Source: a virus (taxonomy: Duplodnaviria > Heunggongvirae > Uroviricota > Caudoviricetes). Taken from it: a stretch of 59,135 bases of DNA. The DNA lies in IMG/VR virus record IMGVR_UViG_3300037455_000543, positions 1 to 59,135 of that record; one strand, written 5' to 3'. The notes beneath the pieces were generated by a model that ran no database searches, was not told the origin of the DNA, and saw only the letters and a list, made by a program, of their open reading frames with translations. Position numbers and translations under genes: made by a program. Positions 84 through 53,000 of the stretch are shown in pieces; positions within the stretch are counted from its first letter, which is position 1, and the number at the start of each line of letters is the position of its first letter.

Positions 84-156
84 GCCTTATTGTTGTATTG
101 GCTTAGCAAGCGATCCTTCCAAGTTCGAAGAGTGAGTTCGATTCTCACATAAGGCT
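84..156 (+). tRNA. tRNA-Gly(TCC)
   Basis: Acceptor GCCTTAT/ATAAGGC, loop CTTCCAA, T-arm GTGAG-TTCGATT-CTCAC, U73. Confidence 0.9.
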
Positions 157-167
157 CTAAAATCATC

Positions 168-238
168 CCATACGTAGTGTAACGGTAGCACAACAAACTG
201 TGACTTTGTTAGATTGTGTTCGACTCACAACTTGTGGA
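168..238 (+). tRNA. tRNA-His(GTG), no encoded G-1, A73
   Basis: Anticodon arm ACAAA-CTGTGAC-TTTGT, T-arm TTGTG-TTCGACT-CACAA, acceptor CCATACG/CTTGTGG with one mismatch. Confidence 0.85.
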
Positions 239-243
239 CTAAT

Positions 244-7087: not shown

Positions 7088-7636
7088 ATGAGAGAACGTA
7101 AAAATATATCAGTTGAAGAATTTAAACAAGTATGTAAAAATCTTAACCTTGAAATTGAGGAAACAACAGATCCTAGAATTCCAGGTTTTCTAGGGATTTA
7201 TGCCTATACTTACAGTCCAATTTTTAAATTCGGTAAAGACGCGATTGCCAATTTGCTTATACAGGATGATAAGCAAGAACATCCCTGGGTTACATATTGT
7301 GATGGGCTCGTAAAAGATGATAGCTACGATAATTATATAGTTCTTGACGAAGGACTAACCGGTCTTTGGTCCAGTCCATTCGATACAGATGACCTTGAAT
7401 TGCACTTACGGCGTGCAATTGATAAAATTAAGGCGGTCGAAGAAAAAACTAAATGGCCAAAGCGTCAACATATCACAATTGATGTATTCTATGATCAAGA
7501 ACGTGATAATCGATTCTTACGTAAAGACTTAGATGAAATTGTATGGAAGTTTTTTGATGATATAAGTGATAAAGTTCCGGTAGCAGTTCTTAATGCTGCA
7601 GGTAACACATATTATGCAAGAGAAGATAAAATTTAA
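7088..7636 (+). CDS. Hypothetical protein
   Basis: 182-aa ORF. Confidence 0.75.
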   Translation: MRERKNISVEEFKQVCKNLNLEIEETTDPRIPGFLGIYAYTYSPIFKFGKDAIANLLIQDDKQEHPWVTYCDGLVKDDSYDNYIVLDEGLTGLWSSPFDTDDLELHLRRAIDKIKAVEEKTKWPKRQHITIDVFYDQERDNRFLRKDLDEIVWKFFDDISDKVPVAVLNAAGNTYYAREDKI

Positions 7637-7650
7637 AAAGTGAGAGATTA

Positions 7651-8364
7651 ATGAAAGTCGGTCTTATCGGCAAAGGAATAGAATACAGCAAATCAAAGGA
7701 AATATTCGAATCCCAAGGAATCGAATATCATGTTTATGATGTTCCTTATGTAGAACAAGGTATTGAATGCGTATTTGCCGATAAGCTCGATGGCTTTAAT
7801 GTTACTACGCCGTTTAAACATGATATTATAGAATATCTTGACGGATTGATGCCTGAAGCTATTAAAGCACAATCTGTTAATTGTGTAAAGATATGGGGAG
7901 ATAACTATATCGGCGACACATTTGATGGTAGAGCATTTGGTGCATCATTAGATCATTACATTAGCAATCATGATGACTGGGAATTTGATTTTCCTCATAA
8001 TATTGCTATTCTAGGCAATGGTGGTGTAGTTCCTTCTATATTGTCGAATATTCATGAGACAATCGATGATGTAAATTCTAAGCATGAGATTTATGTCTTT
8101 GCTAGAAATCCTAAAAATGATGAGTTAAAACTATCAGATTTCAATGCAAAAGAATTCGACTTAATTGTAAATACTATTCCGTTTAAATCAAAAATTGATA
8201 TTAACTTTAATAATGAGCATAAATTTATCTATTATGATTTAAATTATGCCGATGATACGTTAATTAAAAAGGCAGAAAGAAATAGTCATTGCTCATGGGC
8301 TATTGATGGACTGGATATGCTAGAACGTCAAGCTGAAATGTCACTTAACTGGTGGAAATGGTAG
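7651..8364 (+). CDS. aroE: Shikimate dehydrogenase
   Basis: GLIG..I.YSKS, GFNVTTPFK, SVN, ILGNGG, IVNTIP, YDLNY and DGLDMLERQA motifs. Confidence 0.88.
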   Translation: MKVGLIGKGIEYSKSKEIFESQGIEYHVYDVPYVEQGIECVFADKLDGFNVTTPFKHDIIEYLDGLMPEAIKAQSVNCVKIWGDNYIGDTFDGRAFGASLDHYISNHDDWEFDFPHNIAILGNGGVVPSILSNIHETIDDVNSKHEIYVFARNPKNDELKLSDFNAKEFDLIVNTIPFKSKIDINFNNEHKFIYYDLNYADDTLIKKAERNSHCSWAIDGLDMLERQAEMSLNWWKW

Positions 8365-8643: not shown

Positions 8644-9570
8644 TTATTCATATTTTATTTCATAACTTATATTTTCTATTTCATCTTTATTAAGAACTTT
8701 ACTATATAGCTTTTTAAGCTTTGCCATAAGTGATTTTGCTTTTTCATGAGACATAGGTCTTGTGTCAATGGTTATTGCAATTTTATTATTTCCATCAACA
8801 GAACCCAAAAATTGTGTATCATATTCTTGATCAAAGAATTTTTGACCATAATAACGGATCATTCTATTTTTCCATTCTTCATCACGACCAGGAACTTCAT
8901 TATACTGTATTCTAGTAGCAATAAATGAAGACTTACCTTCTAGGGCATGTTGATAAATTTCATAAAAATCATTATAACCATTCGGTGTAGATAAAAGAAT
9001 TGTCTGTGTATTTATATGTGCTGCTTGTACTGGAAATACGCTAACAACAAAATCATGTAATACTCGAGCATCACAAAATGCCATTTCATCGAAAACCATT
9101 AAATCTACTGTTTTTCCACATATAGGACGTCTACTGTATGCACCTATAAAAATATAAGTTCCATTTTCAAAGTCGATTCTATTATATGTAGCCTTTTTAA
9201 TATTGACTTTCAAGAAATCTGGTAAACGATTATAAATTTCTTGTACTTTGTTAAGTATTTCTTCTGCTATGCTTTCTTTATTGGCCAATATTGCAATGCA
9301 TTTATCGGAATTGAATAATGCATACCATAAAATATAAATTGCCGAGATTGTAGTTTTGCCACATTGTCTTGGTGCAATTACTATATGGTTTTGCCTTTTC
9401 GTTTCTTCACGATTTTGCCAGCTGTCAGCAAACTTACGTAAAAGCGTTCTTTGAAACCTATATGGTCTAAAATTTGTATAGCCTTCTGCTGTAAGTATTT
9501 TTACGTATTTTATAAATTGACTAATATTTTTAGAACACGTTTCAAACGTGTTTTTTTGTTTGATATTCAT
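8644..9570 (-). CDS. Stand-alone terminase large subunit ATPase domain (T4 gp17-like; nuclease domain absent)
   Basis: YRFQ, APRQCGKTT Walker A, VFDEMAF Walker B, LSTPNG, FDQEYDTQFLGS; only 308 aa. Confidence 0.85.
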   Translation of the reverse strand: MNIKQKNTFETCSKNISQFIKYVKILTAEGYTNFRPYRFQRTLLRKFADSWQNREETKRQNHIVIAPRQCGKTTISAIYILWYALFNSDKCIAILANKESIAEEILNKVQEIYNRLPDFLKVNIKKATYNRIDFENGTYIFIGAYSRRPICGKTVDLMVFDEMAFCDARVLHDFVVSVFPVQAAHINTQTILLSTPNGYNDFYEIYQHALEGKSSFIATRIQYNEVPGRDEEWKNRMIRYYGQKFFDQEYDTQFLGSVDGNNKIAITIDTRPMSHEKAKSLMAKLKKLYSKVLNKDEIENISYEIKYE

Positions 9571-10697: not shown

Positions 10698-10726
10698 TTT
10701 ACAAAATAAAATAAATTTACTATATT
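10698..10726 (+). promoter_or_regulatory. Promoter of tRNA operon B
   Basis: TTTACA-17nt-TATATT. Confidence 0.75.
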
Positions 10727-10786
10727 TAACAGCGTAAAATAACAAAAAATTAAAAAAGAAAATCATATATAATATAAAGGTTAAAA

Positions 10787-10873
10787 ATGAAAATGCTTAG
10801 TTTAACAATCCTCCTACTCAGTAGCCTGCTCCTTAGCTGGTTATTGCGTCGTAGTATAGTGGGAACTAAGTAG
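10787..10873 (+). CDS. Attenuator leader peptide 1, MKMLSLTILLLSSLLLSWLLRRSIVGTK
   Basis: SD AAGG; 10 Leu (all six codons), 5 Ser (all AGY), 1 Trp; precedes a terminator and the Trp/Leu/Ser(GCT) tRNAs. Confidence 0.85.
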   Translation: MKMLSLTILLLSSLLLSWLLRRSIVGTK

Positions 10874-10903
10874 TTCGATTTTTTAATCGTAATGAAAGAT
10901 TTA

Positions 10904-10936
10904 AAGGTTCCCATAGGTTGGGGACCTTAATTTTTT
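10904..10936 (+). terminator. Attenuator terminator 1 (antiterminator partner GTGGGAACT 10859-10867)
   Basis: AAGGTTCCCA-TAGGT-TGGGGACCTT plus AATTTTTT; the 5' arm GGTTCCCAT can alternatively pair with 10859-10867. Confidence 0.8.
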
Positions 10937-10942
10937 ATATAT

Positions 10943-11015
10943 AGCTCTATGTGGTAATTGGTTAACCGAGGTGACTCCAAATCTCCTGTTCCCTGTTCGA
11001 ATCGGGGTAGGGCTG
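10943..11015 (+). tRNA. tRNA-Trp(CCA)
   Basis: Loop CTCCAAA, acceptor AGCTCTA/TAGGGCT, G73. Confidence 0.9.
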
Positions 11016-11021
11016 TAAAAA

Positions 11022-11095
11022 CGGTTTGTAGACCAACTGGCAGAGTCGACGCACTCAAAATGCGTGTAGTGTGGGTTCGAATCCCACTAAACCGA
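11022..11095 (+). tRNA. tRNA-Leu(CAA), short variable loop
   Basis: ACGCA-CTCAAAA-TGCGT, GTGGG-TTCGAAT-CCCAC. Confidence 0.9.
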
Positions 11096-11106
11096 TAATA
11101 AATTAA

Positions 11107-11180
11107 CGATTCGTAGACCAACTGGCAGAGTCAATGGCATGAGAGGCCATAAAGTATGAGTTCGAATCTCATCGAATCGA
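11107..11180 (+). tRNA. tRNA-Leu(GAG), short variable loop
   Basis: ATGGC-ATGAGAG-GCCAT, acceptor CGATTCG/CGAATCG. Confidence 0.88.
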
Positions 11181-11187
11181 TATATAA

Positions 11188-11261
11188 CGGTTTGTAGACC
11201 AACGGCAGGAGTCAACACGTTCAGAGCGTGTGCAGTGTGGGTTCGAATCCCACTGAACCGA
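11188..11261 (+). tRNA. tRNA-Leu(CAG), short variable loop
   Basis: ACACG-TTCAGAG-CGTGT. Confidence 0.9.
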
Positions 11262-11267
11262 GAATAA

Positions 11268-11351
11268 CGTCATGTGGAGTAATTGGTAGCCTCGCAAGAA
11301 TGAGAGTCTTGTGGTAGAAATACCGTGAGGGTTCGAGTCCCTCTGTGACGA
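11268..11351 (+). tRNA. tRNA-Leu(GAG), long variable arm
   Basis: CAAGA-ATGAGAG-TCTTG, variable arm GGTA-GAAA-TACC. Confidence 0.9.
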
Positions 11352-11360
11352 TAAAATTTT

Positions 11361-11450
11361 GGAGTTGTGCCTGAGTGGCTTATAGGGACGGTTTGCTAAA
11401 CCGTTGAGGGACGTAAAGTTCCTCCGAAGGTTCGAATCCTTCCAGCTCCG
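11361..11450 (+). tRNA. tRNA-Ser(GCT)
   Basis: ACGGT-TTGCTAA-ACCGT, long variable arm, G73. Confidence 0.93.
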
Positions 11451-11458
11451 CTAAATAA

Positions 11459-11532
11459 CGCCAGGTTACCAAATTGGCAAAGGGGCCTGACTTAGGATCA
11501 GGTATTTGCGGGTTCAAGTCCCGCTCTGGCGA
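11459..11532 (+). tRNA. tRNA-Leu(TAG), short variable loop
   Basis: CCTGA-CTTAGGA-TCAGG. Confidence 0.9.
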
Positions 11533-11535
11533 TAA

Positions 11536-11609
11536 CCGGGTCTATCCCAACAGGCAGAGGAATGGGTCTTAAAAACCTTTCAGTTTCGGTTCGAATCCGA
11601 AGATCCGGA
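11536..11609 (+). tRNA. tRNA-Leu(TAA), short variable loop
   Basis: Loop CTTAAAA, acceptor CCGGGTC/GATCCGG. Confidence 0.88.
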
Positions 11610-11643
11610 TTATAGAGAAACTTGAAAAAATTATAGTATAATT

Positions 11644-11856
11644 ATGACAAATTTTGAAATGTGAAAAGAATCACTTACCCCCGAAGAATGGGCGAGTAAG
11701 TTTGTTGAACTGGACTATTGTCCAAGATGTCCTGCATATAATTTCTGTAAAAACTGTAATATAACGAATCCAACAAATTCCGATGGAACAGTTAATACAG
11801 AAGAATGCAATAATACATGCAGAAAAAGATTTATGGCATGGGCTAATGAAAATTAA
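11644..11856 (+). pseudogene. Small Cys-rich ORF interrupted by in-frame TGA at codon 7
   Basis: MTNFEM*KESLTPEEW...CPRCPAYNFC...CRKRFMAWANEN; TGA at 11662. Confidence 0.55.
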
Positions 11857-11917
11857 GGGATTTACTATTATCGATATTTTTCCTATATTATACAATATTA
11901 AATAGGATTAAAAATCG

Positions 11918-12307
11918 ATGCATAGTATTGACCATGATTATCGTTCATATAAACGTAGTCAGAATTATGACTTGTTATGCCGTAGAGTACATGATGTTGC
12001 AGAAAGGCTTGAAAAATTGGGTTATGAAACAAATGGTTTAAATGAAGAGCTTTATATAAAGCTACATATCAGCGAAAAAGAAATATTGTATCTATATATT
12101 CATTGCACTGATGAAAATGATACGATTCAAGTTGAAGACCAACATCTGAGTATCAGGATTCCGACAGCAATAGATGATTTTCCAAAGCTGTTTAATAAAG
12201 AAAGTTATCTTGTAAAAGGATTACTTGAATATAGACAATTATTGAGGCAGTTTAGACTATCAATGACATCAAATCTTGATATGGCTATAAAAATGGATAA
12301 AATATAA
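11918..12307 (+). CDS. Hypothetical protein, paralog family P (copy 3)
   Basis: MHSIDHDYR..VHDVAERLEKLGYETNGLNEEL. Confidence 0.75.
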   Translation: MHSIDHDYRSYKRSQNYDLLCRRVHDVAERLEKLGYETNGLNEELYIKLHISEKEILYLYIHCTDENDTIQVEDQHLSIRIPTAIDDFPKLFNKESYLVKGLLEYRQLLRQFRLSMTSNLDMAIKMDKI

Positions 12308-12313
12308 AAGGGG

Positions 12314-12342
12314 TTTACAAACCGTAAATAATTTACTATATT
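12314..12342 (+). promoter_or_regulatory. Promoter of structured ncRNA
   Basis: TTTACA-17nt-TATATT; predicted start coincides with the RNA 5' stem. Confidence 0.75.
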
Positions 12343-12347
12343 ATAAA

Positions 12348-12476
12348 ATGACGATAGCTTAGTAAAGGTGCTGAAAATTCGGTTCGAGTCCGATTAAGCC
12401 ATGGAATGGTAAAAGCTGTTCGACTCAGCGTTTGATTTGTGGATTATCTGGCAGTTCGATTCTGCAGTATCGTCAT
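12348..12476 (+). ncRNA. Unknown RNA with three tRNA T-arm-like hairpins
   Basis: Closing stem ATGACGATA/TATCGTCAT; TCGG-TTCGAGT-CCGA, GCTG-TTCGACT-CAGC, GCAG-TTCGATT-CTGC. Confidence 0.7.
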
Positions 12477-12680
12477 AAAAACTTGGCGGCTCCGGAACGC
12501 ATCGTAGGACCTCTCCGAACCTAAGGCTGGTAATTCGTTTCATGTAGGAAGTTCCTCGTGAAATGCTACTTACCAATAAGCTGGACGTGCAAACTGTGCG
12601 TCACGTAGAGAATGGGATCGTATTAGCCCGTGAAGTTTGGTTATTTTCTTTGGACTTTAAAAATAACCGTTTTTTAGGGG

Positions 12681-12709
12681 TTTACAAAACAAAAGTTTTT
12701 TACTATATT
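12681..12709 (+). promoter_or_regulatory. Promoter of tRNA operon C
   Basis: TTTACA-17nt-TATATT. Confidence 0.75.
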
Positions 12710-12773
12710 TTACATCGTAAAAAACGAAAACAAGGAAAAATTTTTTATATATAATAATAAAAGGATAAAAGCA

Positions 12774-12866
12774 ATGAACTTACAGTCTTATACATCATCA
12801 TGCATTTCGATTTGTGGACAGCAGTCCTCAATTTATTGCATGTATTCCATTAAGACTGGTGGGTGA
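12774..12866 (+). CDS. Attenuator leader peptide 2, MNLQSYTSSCISICGQQSSIYCMYSIKTGG
   Basis: SD AAGGA; 7 Ser (all TCN), 3 Tyr, 3 Cys, 4 Ile, 3 Gln (all CAG), 1 internal Met, matching the downstream tRNAs. Confidence 0.85.
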   Translation: MNLQSYTSSCISICGQQSSIYCMYSIKTGG

Positions 12867-12894
12867 CACCTAGTAAATTCGTATAGAATTTTAT

Positions 12895-12929
12895 AAAGTG
12901 TCACTAAGAAAGTGACGCTTTTATTTTTT
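12895..12929 (+). terminator. Attenuator terminator 2 (antiterminator partner GGTGACAC 12862-12869, over the leader stop codon)
   Basis: AAAGTGTCACT-AAGAA-AGTGACGCTTT plus T-run. Confidence 0.82.
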
Positions 12930-13009
12930 ATTATATGACTGAACAGACCCTTGAGACGTATGTTGTATAGGAGCGTTTGTTCGGACAATCGGTGAAAATC
13001 CGATATTAT

Positions 13010-13094
13010 GGCAGTTTCGGATAGCGGCAATTCCTGGAGGCTGTAACCCTCCCGCCCTAACGGGCTTCCGTAGGTTCGAGTCCTACAGCTGTCA
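13010..13094 (+). tRNA. tRNA-Tyr(GTA)
   Basis: GGAGG-CTGTAAC-CCTCC, long variable arm. Confidence 0.92.
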
Positions 13095-13107
13095 CTAACA
13101 AATTAAT

Positions 13108-13190
13108 GGGTATGCTGATGAGTTGGAGATCATCTCCGGTCTGTAAAACCGGCGCCTACGGCTTTGGTGGTTCGAATCCACCCATACCCA
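13108..13190 (+). tRNA. tRNA-Tyr(GTA)
   Basis: CCGGT-CTGTAAA-ACCGG, acceptor GGGTATG/CATACCC. Confidence 0.92.
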
Positions 13191-13195
13191 CTACA

Positions 13196-13276
13196 GGCAG
13201 AGGATGACTGATCATCATTGGATTACTCTTGTCCTACACGGTTTCCTAGGACTAAGGATAGGGCACTCTGCTACCA
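13196..13276 (+). ncRNA. tRNA-like element with acceptor stem and ACCA end but no canonical T-arm
   Basis: GGCAGAG/CTCTGCT then A-CCA; internal hairpins GATGA/TCATC and GTCCTA/TAGGAC. Confidence 0.4.
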
Positions 13277-13407
13277 TTTAGTTCGCAGTGACGCTATGCG
13301 AAAGGGAGGAATCCTAAAATAGCGGTCGTGTTTGTGAGGTAAACAAGGTGGTAGGCCACTAAAGTTTTTCGGTATCTTTGGGTAAAAACCGTAGAAAAGT
13401 TTTTTAT

Positions 13408-13495
13408 GCGCTCTTGGGTCGAGCCTGGCCGAAGACCACAGTCTGCAAAACTGTTGTGAGAAATCACCGCGTTGGTTCAAATCCAACAGAGCGCT
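13408..13495 (+). tRNA. tRNA-Cys(GCA) with long variable arm
   Basis: ACAGT-CTGCAAA-ACTGT, acceptor GCGCTCT/AGAGCGC, U73, variable arm GTGA-GAAA-TCAC. Confidence 0.88.
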
Positions 13496-13502
13496 CTAAA
13501 TA

Positions 13503-13564
13503 GCATAAGAAGTTCCTATACGCCCAGTGGGCATCCGACTTGAAATCAGACTAATTACTTCTCG
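13503..13564 (+). ncRNA. Structured motif shared with the TerD-gene 5' UTR
   Basis: GCATA-AGAAGT-TCCT...CTAATT-ACTTCT-CGC. Confidence 0.55.
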
Positions 13565-13607
13565 CTATTGCGCTTTTAGACTTAGTACGCGTCAAAAAGT
13601 CACTCTT

Positions 13608-13683
13608 CCCGGAGTAGCTCAGTTGGTTCAGTAGCGTTTGAATCATAATCAAAAGGTCGTTGGTTCAAGTCCAACCTCCGGGA
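13608..13683 (+). tRNA. tRNA with CAT anticodon (elongator Met, or Ile2)
   Basis: TTTGA-ATCATAA-TCAAA, acceptor CCCGGAG/CTCCGGG; no initiator features. Confidence 0.88.
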
Positions 13684-13930
13684 CTAAGGATTAGAATTGT
13701 TCCTTAAACAATCAGGATATAGACGAAACAGTCCTTGTTCGTAAAATAATTACTTACAAAGCCTCTCTTGATCCAGTCAATCGATGGATATACTGGTAAG
13801 GAAAATTTACATAGGTGCTAAATTGTTAGACGTATAAGCAGTGAAATTTTAGAGTATGAAAGACTAAGACTGAAGTCGCTATTTAATGTAACACTGGTTA
13901 GAACAAAAACTAAATAAATAGAACTATTAT

Positions 13931-14012
13931 CGGCATATAGTGTAATTGGTTAACACGCCCGTCTGATACGCGGGAAACGATGCTTGTCCTAGTTCGAGTC
14001 TAGGTATGCCGA
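13931..14012 (+). tRNA. tRNA-Ile(GAT), enlarged variable region
   Basis: CCCGT-CTGATAC-GCGGG, acceptor CGGCATA/TATGCCG. Confidence 0.85.
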
Positions 14013-14016
14013 CTAT

Positions 14017-14093
14017 CCACAGGCAATAAGCCGATTGGTGCGGCAGCAAGTCTGATAAACTTGTAAGTGTTTGTTCAAGTCAAACTCTGTGGA
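14017..14093 (+). tRNA. tRNA-Ile(GAT), atypical acceptor-D connector
   Basis: CAAGT-CTGATAA-ACTTG, GTTTG-TTCAAGT-CAAAC. Confidence 0.75.
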
Positions 14094-14104
14094 CTAAAAA
14101 TTAT

Positions 14105-14189
14105 TGAGGATTAACCCTAATGGTAAGGGCCTGGTTTGGAATGCCAGCGTGGGTTTACTCACTTGAAAGTTCGAGTCTTTCATCCTCAG
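14105..14189 (+). tRNA. tRNA-Ser(GGA)
   Basis: CTGGT-TTGGAAT-GCCAG, long variable arm, G73. Confidence 0.9.
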
Positions 14190-14591
14190 CTAATAAATAA
14201 GAAAAGCTATAGGTATCATAACAGACTGTCGGAACCTATACACGTAGCATGCAACGTCGAAGATAAGGTCTAAGATTTATAAGTTTGGGAAAAGGTAAAC
14301 TTATACAGCACGGTTCACTGTGAACTATGAACCATTTTTTAGAATTTGTTTAATTATACTTCTCGATAAAGTATATAATTCATGGTTTGTACAGACTATG
14401 ATTAAATGCGGTGCCCGGCGGTCGGGACTGGCCGAAATCGAAAATGTATCTAGTGATCCTAATAAGTAGTTCTTAAAGGGTGAAACTCTAGTTGCCTTCG
14501 GCTTCGTAAAATGGAGTTCAAACGAAGTCATCCCGGTTTCTGGAATGGTCTACCAAGACAAGTGCCTAACTAGCTCAAGAAACCATTTTAT

Positions 14592-14679
14592 GGCGGTGTG
14601 GCCGAGTGGTTTATGGCTTCCGATTTGAAATCGGACGTGGGTTAACAGCCCACCGTGGGTTCGAATCCTACCACCGCCT
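14592..14679 (+). tRNA. tRNA-Ser(TGA)
   Basis: TCCGA-TTTGAAA-TCGGA, long variable arm. Confidence 0.92.
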
Positions 14680-14688
14680 CGAATTTTT

Positions 14689-14772
14689 GGAAGTGTCCCG
14701 CAACTGGTGGCGGAGCTGCTTCGAACGCAGTGAGTCAGAGATGACTTGGAGGTTCGAATCCTTTCACTTCCG
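14689..14772 (+). tRNA. tRNA-Ser(CGA)
   Basis: GCTGC-TTCGAAC-GCAGT, long variable arm, G73. Confidence 0.9.
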
Positions 14773-14782
14773 TTGTTTTTAT

Positions 14783-14853
14783 TGCCGGTTGGTGTAATGG
14801 CAGCACAGGGGTCTCTGAAGCCCTTAGCATTCGATCGTAACGAGTACCGGCAA
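14783..14853 (+). tRNA. tRNA-Gln(CTG), non-canonical T-loop
   Basis: GGGGT-CTCTGAA-GCCCT, U1-A72, T-loop ATCGTAA. Confidence 0.85.
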
Positions 14854-15040
14854 CTATGCTATATGAGTAGTTTAAAATGGCAACTCACCATTTTAGATGA
14901 AAGAGATATAGACCGTAAAGGACAATGCGTTATCAACCCCGCTGGCACGGCGGTCAGGTGGAGACCGGTGTATTTTTAAGATTTTCAAATAAAAATATCG
15001 TTCATAATCTTGAACGATATTTTTTTATATTTGTATTACT

Positions 15041-31685: not shown

Positions 31686-32831
31686 TTATTCTTGTTTTTT
31701 AACACACACTGTAAATCCGATAAATCCTACCAGATATAGAAGCCCTAGAACTAAGTATAGGCTATTGTCTGTAAATACGTTTGCTAATGTAGGGCCTAAG
31801 ATACCAGCGATTCCCCATCCAGAAAGAGTCATTGCATGGATTGTAGAAACGGATGACTGACCGAAATATTTGGACAATAAGCTCGGCAATACTGAGAAGT
31901 TTCCGCCATAAGAGAATTCACAAAGCATGATGCCAATGAGCGCAAGATATGGATTCTGTGTAAAGCAAAGGAATGCTGCAATAATACCTAACGAACATAC
32001 CCAATGATATGCCGCTTTTCTACCAATCTTGTCAGAAGCAGTAGACATTCCAAAACGACCAAGAATATTAAATATGGCAGTAGTCGACATCAATATTGCA
32101 ATTTCTTTGAAGCCAAGATTTAACAATAATCCTTTTTCTTGTGAAATCAATGCAAGACCGCAAGAAATATTAATACAGAACATCAACCATACAGAAATAT
32201 ATTTCTTACTCAAAAATATAGTGCTAACCAGGTCCTTATAAGGTATCGCAGTATAGATCGTGCTTATATAAATCGGATTTGGTTTATATAGCCATGAACA
32301 TAATGACATTATTGCTAAGAATATTCCAGACAGGATTAGGAACATATAAGGCAATGAGAAATTCGCCAACAGGTATTCAATAACCGGCGCAAATACGAAC
32401 TTGCCGAGTCCGAAACCAGTAATTGCCAAACCACTAGCTAGTCCCTTATGGTCTTCGAAATTACTTAGTAGTTGTTTTATCGGCGACGTATAGCCAATAC
32501 CTGTTCCAGTTCCCATAAATGCACATGCAATGTAATATAACGGCAGCAATACGAAGTTAGTTGCCAGGAACATTAAGAACATGCCTACTGAGAAAAGAAT
32601 AGTGGAAACGATAGCCATTCTTTTCGGGTTTAATTCGACCATTCTACCGAATGTTGCAGCACCCATTCCAAGGAAGAAAATAATGAGCATGAAGCCAATA
32701 TCGCCCTGGAATTTAGTAATGTCGAATAATTGTTGGATATTTACCGAATATTGTGAGAAATTATAAACTGTTCCCAGAGACATCGGTAAAAGAACTCCAG
32801 GAATCAGTATTTGAGTGAATCTGTTTGTCAT
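31686..32831 (-). CDS. MFS transporter, oxalate/formate antiporter (OFA)-like
   Basis: About 12 TM; GIGYTSPI..F..HKGLASGLAITGFGLG, FNILGRF..SDKIGRK, YGGNFSVLP. Confidence 0.88.
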   Translation of the reverse strand: MTNRFTQILIPGVLLPMSLGTVYNFSQYSVNIQQLFDITKFQGDIGFMLIIFFLGMGAATFGRMVELNPKRMAIVSTILFSVGMFLMFLATNFVLLPLYYIACAFMGTGTGIGYTSPIKQLLSNFEDHKGLASGLAITGFGLGKFVFAPVIEYLLANFSLPYMFLILSGIFLAIMSLCSWLYKPNPIYISTIYTAIPYKDLVSTIFLSKKYISVWLMFCINISCGLALISQEKGLLLNLGFKEIAILMSTTAIFNILGRFGMSTASDKIGRKAAYHWVCSLGIIAAFLCFTQNPYLALIGIMLCEFSYGGNFSVLPSLLSKYFGQSSVSTIHAMTLSGWGIAGILGPTLANVFTDNSLYLVLGLLYLVGFIGFTVCVKKQE

Positions 32832-49381: not shown

Positions 49382-50050
49382 ATGGAAATTAAGCACGAAA
49401 TAGTAAAACAATTACGTAACGAAGCTAATACGGGTTATGGTATAGTTGTCGCTGGAAAGGCATTAAAACGGTTTAATGGCGATTATGAAAGAGCAAAGGT
49501 ATCGCTTAAAAACCATCGTTGGAGTACGCCTTTATCTGGCGTTGTCTATCATGAACCGGATGAAGACGATGTTGATTATATTGATGTCGAAAATTTCAAA
49601 GAATTTGATCAAGATTTCAAGGCATGGCGTTATGCAAGACATATTGAAGTGAAGCTCAAAGATGACGGAACTATTGACTACGACGGTTCTGGCTGGCCAA
49701 GACCTATTTCTGAAATCAGAGAACTTGAAGAATTTGTAAAGCAAAGAAAGGAAGCTGCAGAACATTGGACACCGCAAATTACTGTTTCTGATATTATTAT
49801 GTCTAGTGTAAACCAATTTAACGCTGGCATTAAGTTTAGGGACCAATGGTTTGTTGCCGAATTTTCAAGAAAATATATTCAAGATTCTGGTATGCATGTA
49901 TGGCAATATGCAACGAAGTACGATGATTATTTTATAACTTTGAGATTCCCGATGGATCAATATATGGAATGGAATAAAATCGTATTTGACGGTAATAACT
50001 ATATCTTTAACGGTAAATCAGTTTCATTGAAAAAATTAATGGGAAAATAA
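49382..50050 (+). CDS. Hypothetical protein with EF-Ts N-terminal (UBA-like) domain
   Basis: IVKQLR..G.G....KAL...NGDYERA...LK. Confidence 0.55.
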   Translation: MEIKHEIVKQLRNEANTGYGIVVAGKALKRFNGDYERAKVSLKNHRWSTPLSGVVYHEPDEDDVDYIDVENFKEFDQDFKAWRYARHIEVKLKDDGTIDYDGSGWPRPISEIRELEEFVKQRKEAAEHWTPQITVSDIIMSSVNQFNAGIKFRDQWFVAEFSRKYIQDSGMHVWQYATKYDDYFITLRFPMDQYMEWNKIVFDGNNYIFNGKSVSLKKLMGK

Positions 50051-53000
50051 TATGAGCTTTGCGATAGATGTTAGATGCCTTAAAGGCATGTATAAGCAAT
50101 ATGGCGCATTACCTATTTTTGTCAGAGACAGGAAAGGAATAGAGAAGCCTGGTAAATTTGTTCCATTACATTCATTTTTCGAAGGTTATTACTGGAATGT
50201 AATGACCATCGATGACTTGGATGAGGAAGATAAGAAAATTACCATCATTGGAGGACCGGATGATGGTAAGTGTCCATATCCTAGAGGCTATAAGCAAGAT
50301 ACTCTTGAATTCGTAGAAACGAATACATGGGCTGACTTTGACTGGTGTATTGTACATTGCAATGGCAAGTTTGGTCCTAATGCTCCGTGTTTTACAGAAG
50401 TAAACGTCTATGATGATAAAGTTGTATTCTTTGAGAATACTGAACGTATTCTGGAATGGCAAGCTAAATGTCTTAAAGAAAAAGAAGAACGAGAAAAGAA
50501 AGCGGCACAACGGGGAGTTTTCTGCGGTCAAGGAAATGATGTTATTCCGTTGCCAATGATTAGAAGAGCATATCCTAAGCTGTTTTCTGATGTATTAGTG
50601 GACGTAAAACCGAAAAAACAGCCAGAAAGTTCATATTATAAGTTAAGATGTATTGATGGCGCAGAAGTAACAGACGGAGTATTATCATGGGTAAGAAAAA
50701 AGAAACAATAGAGTTTTTAGCAGAAATTTCAGAATTTGAAGATAGATTCGAAAGAATTGGTAAAGAAGTAATACCGGAATTAGAAACCTATAATGTAGCT
50801 GCTGAAGTGTCTTATGATGCCTGGAATTACAGCGATACATTATTAAAATATGAAGTTAAACATTTCAAGTATAACGAGTTCGATATATACTTCGAATACG
50901 ACTCCGTATGTGCGACCATAAGCGAAAAACAGGTTTGGATAAAGATAACACCTTATGACACGTTTGACGTCCTTGGAGACGTGTTTCTGTGCGATTTTAT
51001 AGACTTTAAGGATGATGACTGGTATGTGCAATCACCGATAGACACTAATAACTCAGAAATTTCTCATCCGATAGTATTGACAGATTCAATGATAAAATCT
51101 ATATTTGAAAAGGTAAAGTCTTATGGAATTTAGGTGGTCAGTTTTAACATATCCGTTTTCGCAAATAGATCTCTTCCCAGCGATCTATAAGTATTCTATT
51201 GCATACCATTTTGACATTCCATCAGATAATTCGAAAAATAAATCTACTATGCCAGTTATGCCGCTAACTGAAGATTATATCTTCTCGCCAGATAAAGAGA
51301 TTCGACATTTACCAATGGATGTTTATGCAATTGATGGCAATGTTATGATATATGTAGATTTTGCGGAAATGAATAAGCCTATAGTAGATAGCGTCTTAAA
51401 GCAGAAACTCAAAGAAATTGAGTCTGATGAAAAAGGTTCATCGGTCGACGATGATTTGGGTTTTTAACAAGGATTAAATAATGGCTAATTATCATGTTGG
51501 ATGTGGACTGGCAGGAATTTATGCCGGAACTATTTCTAAACCTGGTGTTTGGAAAGTAAAGAACGATGTTACTGATGAGGCAATCTGTGCTGTCGCTGAT
51601 TATATGCGAGGCAAGATTGAAAATGGCAGTGACACCTATGAAATTACTTGGAAGCTTCCAACCGGTCGAAAGATTATCATGTCTTTGACCGTTGATGATC
51701 GTAATGTTGAGGCTAGCAAATGACAGATGCTGAAATTCCAAAAATTTGCAGAGATTGTAAACATTGTCAGAGATATCATGAAATCTCTGACTGGATGCCA
51801 CATTGGCTTCCTTGGAAATATAACTGTGATGTTGTAAAGTCGGGCACTGCAAAACAATGGTCTTACGAGCATAACGATTATATTTGTTTGAAAAAGGAAT
51901 AATATGAAGTTAAGAATCAAAGATCCTGTTGAATTATGCTGTGCAAAATGTCGTAAAAAGATTATTGTAAATCCTGAAGAAGTACACTATGAAGCGGATA
52001 TATGCGATACCCGTTCAATGGGACCTGAGATTCAACATACTTTAGGATATTGTAATGAGTGTCCGCGTTGTAAACTTGCATATTATTTCAATATAGATGC
52101 TTTTGAATATCCATCTGATTGTATTAATTATGTCGAGTACGAAACAAATGGTGCAAGCTGGTGGCAAAATAATAAGCCTATATTATTAGATGAAAATGGA
52201 AACGAGGTCAAATATGACACCTGATGAGTTTGACAAGAGGCTTGATGAATATCGTCATGCCAAATATGATATTATAGAAAATTTTGATACTGAACTATAT
52301 GATTGCTTTGAAGACCTGGTTTCTTTAAAAGATGATACATTAGAACATTTTGACTATTACGATTATGATGATGAATGGACAGCATGTTCTGACCTTAAAG
52401 ATAATGCTTGTTATATTATAAATGTTCCAGGCTATATTGTTAAAAGGTGGTTTGAAGGCAAGAAAGAAGAAGCCAAAGAAGCATTGAAGAAAGCACAAAA
52501 AACAAACGGCCGTTATCGATTAAAAAGGGAATAAGATGACAGCAGAAGAAGCAAGACAACTTAGACATTCAAAAGAAGACGAACAAATAGGGCATAAAAA
52601 TACATTCAATCTTCTTGTTGGCGATTATGTCGATATGATTGAAAGTAAAATCAGAAGTGTCGCTAGATATACTGACGCTGGTATTTATCCGCTTCCTGAT
52701 TTATGTAATAGGGCAGATGTCGTAGAAAAAATAGTAGATACTTTAAGAACTGACGGATTTACAGTTTCAGTCGAAACAAAATACCGTTTTGATATTAAAG
52801 CATGTTATTTTGACTTGTACATTACTTGGAGAAAACCCAATGAACAACAAGCCTAAAGATCGTTATGAAAATAAACTAAATCGGTTTATTAAAGAATGTG
52901 ATAAAAGGTGGAGAGAACTAAGGAACTCTACACCTGAATATTGTCATATTCTCGGTTTATATAATAAAATTGCAGAAGACGTTCAAAAAGAACTTGGTTT

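Follow-up and report, generated by a model that had tools for sequence, protein, structure and literature searches.

Codon-matched leader reading frames and predicted attenuators ahead of the tRNA gene clusters of a large gut phage

Introduction

The leaders trpL, hisL, leuL, thrL and ilvL (ilvGMEDA) of Escherichia coli are multivalent leader-peptide attenuators, the mechanism of which is summarised in PMC1183508. Here, we describe units of similar build which precede tRNA genes in a tailed phage (Caudoviricetes; IMG/VR record IMGVR_UViG_3300037455_000543). The whole stretch analysed, positions 1 to 59,135 of the record, is referred to as the window; two units lie at 10,698–14,853, and five more were found in the remainder of the genome. 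Biosynthetic-operon leaders and phage units have in common an open reading frame (ORF) with regulatory codons, hairpins formed by the segment pairs 1:2, 2:3 and 3:4, and a terminator with a U tail; read-through upon slow decoding is what we propose for the phage units. They differ in that the phage units are located in a phage and have tRNA genes, not enzymes, as their output, so that the product would act directly on the step that is sensed. Unlike a biosynthetic leader, each phage leader would sense three to six amino acids at the isoacceptor level, and the seven units would cover most of the code. The Rfam leader families (Trp_leader, His_leader, Leu_leader, Thr_leader) gave no match, and the genes downstream are tRNAs.

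Attenuation of a component of the translation apparatus, with feedback on aminoacyl-tRNA supply, is a trait which the phage units would share with pheM-pheST of E. coli, a chromosomal system that controls a synthetase and senses a single amino acid. T-box elements bind uncharged tRNA directly, via one specifier codon and without translation, and a few of them have been reported ahead of tRNA genes in Firmicutes. In T-boxes, as proposed for the phage units, the status of a tRNA flips a switch between terminator and antiterminator, but the phage units would use translation instead. A T-box riboswitch was rejected as a candidate: there was no Rfam T-box match at gathering score or at E up to 5, and a conserved ORF is present instead.

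A spare set of tRNAs that is silent until translation is stressed, as we propose for the phage, is found in cyanobacteria, where the stress-induced tRNA L-arrays are controlled by the repressor TrcR (PMC8421152, PMC10272220). Unlike the proposed phage system, the L-array is a single array under a protein repressor and without codon-level feedback; the words ‘attenuation’ and ‘leader’ are absent from the text of the TrcR L-array paper. Phage tRNAs counter PARIS, retron-Eco7 and PrrC by replacing host tRNAs destroyed by defence nucleases (PMC12409363, PMC11555353). Their expression is ascribed to strong promoters, and PMC11555353 is free of the string ‘attenuat’. It has long been asked what phages need tRNAs for and how these are expressed, and published work describes promoter-driven supplements. 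In the literature searched, which leaves most subscription journals outside, we found neither attenuation of tRNA genes nor such leaders in phages. The mechanism considered here is a known one, attenuation, with a new target: tRNA genes, in a phage.

Codon content of the leaders matches the downstream tRNA clusters

An earlier note, made from the letters of the window alone, had described two tRNA operons with a common layout of promoter, Shine–Dalgarno (SD) sequence, short ORF, terminator and tRNA array, each ORF being built almost entirely from codons read by the tRNAs directly downstream. All parts could be located again (Table 1), and recounting reproduced the cognate codons in the core of both leaders: 15 of 17 in leader 1 (codons 4–20) and 21 of 23 in leader 2 (codons 4–26). 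The claimed match at isoacceptor level also holds, as Ser is encoded by AGY in leader 1 (5/5) and by TCN in leader 2 (7/7), which uses CAG for Gln (3/3). The control block of leader 1 contains all six Leu codons, AGT/AGC and TGG; that of leader 2 contains TCN seven times, ATT four times, CAG, TAT and TGY three times each, and ATG.

Over their whole length, leader 1 has 16 cognate codons out of 27 and leader 2 has 21 out of 29, where the codon usage of the long ORFs of the phage predicts fractions of 0.11 and 0.20 (binomial P values of 1e-9 and 1.5e-9). Each of the two leaders ranks first for its own cluster among the 3067 short ORFs of the genome, and matches the other window cluster in just 1–2 codons.

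A leader ORF with a terminator precedes the tRNA cluster in all seven clusters of the genome. The five further leaders are rich in codons for Val/Thr/Asn/Pro, Asn/Pro/Thr, Phe/Glu/Ala, Asp/His/Lys/Arg/Gly and Ile/Arg/Lys/Gln, in agreement with their respective clusters; in the leader starting at genome position 423102, the codons are those for Asp, His, Lys (AAG), Arg (CGN) and Gly. Together, the seven leaders have 107 cognate codons out of 180, a count that leaves out two doubtful ARAGORN calls (108 with them), namely Tyr at genome position 416049, which may be Thr(CGT), and Leu(CAA) at 414783. The true pairing of leaders and clusters is the first of 5040 permutations. A chance codon match was rejected on the basis of the two P values, the ranks among short ORFs and the rank of the pairing.

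For five amino acids, the isoacceptors are divided over two clusters: Ser (AGY versus TCN), Lys (AAG versus AAA), Arg (CGN versus AGA), Ile (ATT versus ATA) and Gln (CAG versus CAA). For these, 37 of the 38 codons follow the isoacceptor encoded downstream, and the single exception sits in an antiterminator segment. Across the seven leaders, 46 of the 54 codons readable by the clusters are sampled.

The genome contains 106 promoters of the phage type, only six of which lead to a short ORF with a terminator, all at tRNA clusters; none was found inside any tRNA array. The seventh leader (genome position 415154) is without a promoter of its own, although it has one in a relative. It is nested in the transcript of the preceding unit; to be expressed, its cluster would depend on read-through at two successive attenuators. 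In their untranslated region (UTR) and terminator, the seven units are probably of common ancestry. As their codon contents differ, the codon matches had to evolve separately.

Predicted folds and ribosome position

The 5′ arms of both window terminators are complementary to the ends of the ORFs, as the earlier note had reported (Table 1). In silico, the 1:2, 2:3 and 3:4 hairpins of both window leaders each fold better than shuffled sequences (z −3.2 to −5.7). An antiterminator duplex is found in 7/7 families, with a shuffle P of at most 0.02 for six of the seven units of this genome; in two units the antiterminator pairs with the inner stem and the loop of the terminator. In 41 distinct units from the genome and its relatives, the gap between stop codon and terminator is 23–34 nt, and the terminator duplex is at or just after the ORF end. 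Antiterminator and terminator arms have been altered together between lineages.

The effect of ribosome position was modelled by folding only the RNA downstream of the ribosome, with a downstream footprint of 10 nt and an assumed kinetic step. A modelled ribosome on the control block leads to capture of the terminator 5′ arm, which is freed once the ribosome has moved past codon 21 in leader 1 or codon 27 in leader 2. This effect is absent for the unit on the minus strand. In six leaders, 93 of 131 codons before the predicted switch point are cognate compared with 3 of 32 after it, a contrast which is to some extent expected, given that the antiterminator limits codon choice in the leader tail. 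The features of a ribosome-mediated attenuator that are seen in sequence or model comprise promoter, SD sequence and short ORF, cognate codons, a 3:4 terminator, mutually exclusive 2:3 and 1:2 pairings, and the stall geometry. Four rumen metatranscriptomes contain the region as assembled contigs, some of which cross the terminators and may reflect either DNA or read-through.

Leaders and clusters in related phages

The earlier note had proposed looking in related phages for covariation of leader codons with cluster anticodons. It was found: three tRNA relocations are mirrored in the leaders. Where tRNA-Cys is part of cluster 1 (L002, L005, L012), the Cys codons of leader 1 rise from 0 to 2 while those of leader 2 drop from 3 to 1, the remaining one being within the antiterminator segment. 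Where Gln(CTG) has moved to the Lys/Arg/Ile unit, as in two lineages, CAG rises from 0 to 2 there and falls in leader 2 from 3 to 0–1. Where Ile(GAT) has moved to the Glu/Ala/Phe unit (L026, L184), ATY rises from 1 to 4–5 there and leader 2 of L026 goes from 4 to 1; the Ile(GAT) gene of L184 is nearly identical to window positions 13931–14013. These relocations represent about three events, read without a tree, and donor and recipient are concordant in each. Among leader homologues, all 22 length differences are multiples of three. Two relatives also carry, in tandem, odd Ile(GAT)-like genes in which the D arm is collapsed and the variable region is long (L026:8250–8335, L024:1740–1925).

A more distant clade (genomes of 422 and 419 kb) has about 38 tRNAs in a single unsorted array, for which no leader was found. 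Between its single promoter and the first tRNA lies a structured RNA of ∼400 nt (L027:885–1300, minus-strand numbering; L028:822–1240), for which the L027 sequence gave no Rfam match at gathering score. This RNA may be a different regulator. The suggestion that the circuit accounts for how the tRNAs are sorted was borne out only in part: leaders track clusters, and the array of the leaderless relative is unsorted, though cause and effect may run in either direction.

Codon-matched ORFs in the cultured phage phiCbK

The Caulobacter phage phiCbK (NC_019405.1) has codon-matched mini-ORFs with terminators before two tRNA blocks (L279:5541–5678 and 7342–7440). Its gp335, a ‘hypothetical’ gene of 45 codons followed by an annotated terminator (record positions 49745–49769), precedes Pro, Thr, Lys, Leu, His, Ala and Ser tRNAs. 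Of its 44 codons, 31 match these tRNAs (expected fraction 0.34, P = 6e-7), whereas a single one matches the block that comes next. An unannotated ORF of 32 codons with a terminator (51465–51502) before the Phe/Val/Ile/Gln/Arg block has 15 cognate codons out of 31 (P = 0.004). A third mini-ORF, before Glu/Asp, has 3 of 19 and is not enriched. The model predicts a ribosome-dependent switch for the second leader but not for gp335. ARAGORN called Thr, His, Ala, Ser(GCT) and Arg tRNAs which are not annotated in the record, and the phiCbK genome paper (PMC3556154) contains no mention of attenuation. In the stretches examined of Serratia phage BF and Streptomyces phage Wofford, tRNAs are scattered among ORFs.

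Proposed mechanism and rival explanations

We propose that the units are ribosome-mediated transcription attenuators which have tRNAs as output and exert negative feedback on tRNA supply, and give this reading a probability of roughly 0.87. The attenuator interpretation of the earlier note gained support from four independent sides: from the five additional units, from the 1:2/2:3/3:4 fold with its ribosome geometry, from codons that track tRNA relocations and from the phiCbK layout. Leader translation, coupling of transcription and translation, termination and the trigger are steps that we infer. Host RNA polymerase would initiate at the promoter and a ribosome would load on the leader. When all control codons are decoded fast, the ribosome would reach the last 4–9 codons or the stop codon and mask segment 2, upon which the terminator would form and leave the tRNA genes untranscribed. 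When a cognate aminoacyl-tRNA is scarce because the tRNA has been cleaved, degraded or left uncharged, or because demand exceeds supply, the ribosome would pause in the control block; segment 2 could then take the terminator 5′ arm ahead of synthesis of the 3′ arm, allowing transcription of the cluster. The new tRNAs would decode the same control codons, ending the pause and closing the negative feedback loop. Without any ribosome, the 1:2 hairpin would free the terminator and the unit would be off. Together, the seven leaders would be a set of sensors that covers most of the code and tells isoacceptors apart.

The match at isoacceptor level suggests that the quantity sensed is the supply of particular tRNAs more than that of amino acids; extra tRNA would presumably be no cure for amino-acid starvation. 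A purpose in countering tRNA-cleaving host defences is plausible since phage tRNAs overcome such defences and since this phage encodes RtcB, a T4-type RNA ligase, a CCA-adding-type nucleotidyltransferase and transfer-messenger RNA (tmRNA), and we lean slightly towards it. Ordinary infection demand or host RNA decay would trip the same switch, and an anti-defence role is not separable from control by supply and demand. With similar, slight preference we suggest that in large phages a set of ribosome sensors spanning the code detects isoacceptor loss, for instance through tRNA-cleaving defences, and that only the replacement cluster is then transcribed, an inducible counter-defence made of RNA and mini-genes in phages as unrelated as the T4-like rumen phage and phiCbK.

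Several observations weigh against attenuation by these units. In the model the finished terminator is usually favoured at equilibrium, even with a stalled ribosome, so that the switch must be kinetic. The duplex of the minus-strand unit is weak (shuffle P 0.11), and swaps between lineages in the two window families weakened the pairing in three of four tests. Eight readable codons are absent from the leaders, among them GAG and CCG in spite of the tRNAs being present, and CCT, GCC and GCT count as cognate only if four-way wobble is allowed. Leader 2 carries a TAA at codon 9 in three identical records (L024:801–893, L029, L030), representing one lineage, which also has one leaderless tRNA cluster. 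The stretches of this lineage that were read gave no suppressor tRNA; an apparent ochre suppressor turned out to be a miscalled Lys(TTT). Finally, leaders are absent at the hisE-hisG, pheS and ∼30 tRNA loci read in Fibrobacter.

Some of these points would fit leaders which do sense cognate decoding but act through Rho access, RNA processing or precursor stability, the hairpin being a leaky terminator or a processing site. Besides the equilibrium preference for the terminator at most simulated stall positions, the mixed swap tests and the weak minus-strand duplex, the arm capture in phiCbK gp335, unchanged by simulated ribosome position, points that way. However, all seven families have retained complementarity to the terminator, with sequences that differ and at the fixed gap described above, and in the model it is lost where the cognate codons end; we regard this output as improbable. 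Still less likely is that the units report general translation stress (antibiotics, collisions, mRNA cleavage) with the codon match being secondary. Although the model predicts read-through for any stall in the first 20–26 codons, and the cyanobacterial tRNA arrays are induced by translational stress (PMC8421152, PMC10272220), such a function has no need for seven distinct leaders, the near-complete isoacceptor match or codon turnover after relocation.

The ORFs might also encode functional small peptides or be untranslated, in which case constant leak-through or an antitermination factor of the phage would provide expression of the clusters. Leader 1 has a basic N-terminus with a hydrophobic part after it and resembles a signal or membrane peptide, the nonsense allele persists in one lineage, and the leaderless clade retains its tRNAs. 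The other six peptides, however, are without signal or membrane character, synonymous codon choice, which is invisible to a peptide, follows the cluster, and the reading frames persist even as the amino acids change along with tRNA content. We consider this explanation very unlikely as well; a signal-peptide identity of leader 1 in particular was rejected in view of the other six leaders and of the synonymous codon choice.

If the attenuation model is true, attenuation would extend from enzymes to tRNA genes and provide natural feedback on tRNA supply at isoacceptor level. It would also account for a class of mini-genes that are annotated as ‘hypothetical’, phiCbK gp335 among them, and yield compact genetic reporters of tRNA depletion, useful for finding tRNA-targeting defences. 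A leader that lists its rescue codons raises a direct question, namely which tRNA losses induce which cluster.

Phage genome and probable host

The window forms the first part of a complete phage genome of 424 kb with direct terminal repeats, a GC content of 35%, the tmRNA and close to 60 tRNA calls. It encodes a T4-type major capsid protein, and genes for an RNA polymerase beta subunit and tubulin were looked for but not detected. From these traits the phage is probably not nucleus-forming, and is probably transcribed by the host polymerase in the cytoplasm. It is present in gut samples of cattle, sheep and goat, and INPHARED contains no cultured close relative. Judged from gene content and promoter form, the host is probably Fibrobacter: the GH10 xylanase of the phage (window 36637–38454; relatives carry CBM6) shares as much as 72% identity with Fibrobacter genes, and the form TTGACA/TTTACA-17-TATATT of Fibrobacter tRNA promoters is also that of the phage units.

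Other genes of the window include a shikimate dehydrogenase-like gene (7651–8364), a stand-alone terminase-ATPase-like gene on the minus strand (8644–9570) and an MFS transporter (31686–32831). At genome position ∼421.6k, an ORF directly 3′ of the Glu/Ala/Phe cluster resembles, by eye, the N-terminal domain of EF-Ts.

Features of the units

Table 1. Features of the leader units. Positions refer to the window unless marked as genome positions.
Feature	Position	Strand	Remarks
Gly-TCC and His-GTG, last two tRNAs of the third unit	84..239	+	leader starts at genome 423102, across the circular junction
Promoter, unit 1, TTTACA-17-TATATT	10698..10726	+	sequence motif
Conserved 5′ UTR motif, unit 1	10766..10780	+	ends in AAGG SD, 6 nt to start codon
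Leader ORF 1	10787..10873	+	28 codons; 1:2 hairpin when untranslated, z −3.2
Antiterminator strand (segment 2), unit 1	10859..10867	+	pairs with 10906–10914; −15.3 kcal/mol, z −3.2
Intrinsic terminator 1 (3:4)	10904..10936	+	hairpin 10904–10928 and T tail; −16.0 kcal/mol, z −3.3
tRNA cluster 1	10942..11609	+	Trp(CCA), Leu(CAA), Leu(GAG), Leu(CAG), Leu(GAG), Ser(GCT), Leu(TAG), Leu(TAA)
Promoter, unit 2, TTTACA-17-TATATT	12681..12709	+	sequence motif
Conserved 5′ UTR motif and SD (AAAGGA), unit 2	12746..12766	+	SD–start spacing 9 nt
Leader ORF 2	12774..12866	+	30 codons; 1:2 hairpin when untranslated, z −3.2
Antiterminator strand, unit 2	12862..12869	+	overlaps leader stop codon; pairs with 12898–12905; −16.3 kcal/mol, z −3.3
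Intrinsic terminator 2	12895..12929	+	hairpin 12895–12921 and T tail; −13.6 kcal/mol, z −5.7
tRNA cluster 2	13010..14854	+	Tyr (two), Cys, Met/Ile2(CAT), Ile(GAT) (two), Ser(GGA), Ser(TGA), Ser(CGA), Gln(CTG); structured RNAs interspersed
Terminator closing cluster 2	14991..15030	+	
Further leader, start codon	genome 412652		
Further leader, start codon	genome 415154		
Further leader, start codon	genome 420231		
Further leader, start codon	genome 423102		
Further leader, start codon	genome 325929	−	

The T run of terminator 1 is interrupted by AA. The second Ile(GAT) of cluster 2 was scored by ARAGORN at a relaxed threshold only. Five of the six Leu tRNAs at 11022–11609 are 74 nt long, without the long variable arm usual in bacterial tRNA-Leu. 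The tRNA-Cys at 13408–13496 is long (89 nt), and so are Gln(TTG) and two Asn tRNAs elsewhere in the genome.

Just 5′ of promoter 2, the region 12314–12676 has its own promoter, a structured ORF-poor RNA of ∼330 nt and a terminator-like hairpin; it had no Rfam match and is covered by contigs from an RNA run. Further structured RNAs that are not tRNAs lie in cluster 2 at 12936–13009, 13195–13400, 13690–13925 and 14200–14585, also without Rfam match; contigs assembled from RNA runs in two studies include 14371–14574.

A repeated motif (GCATAAGAAGTTCCTA ... ACTTCTCGC) occurs at window 13500–13575 and at genome positions 414.5k, 414.8k, 415.0k and 423.3k, where it surrounds either loops that resemble anticodon loops or entire tRNA-like units. 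The tRNA-like genes at 414.9k and 420.0k carry a permuted form of it within their anticodon loop. The repeat is possibly a substrate for the phage RtcB.

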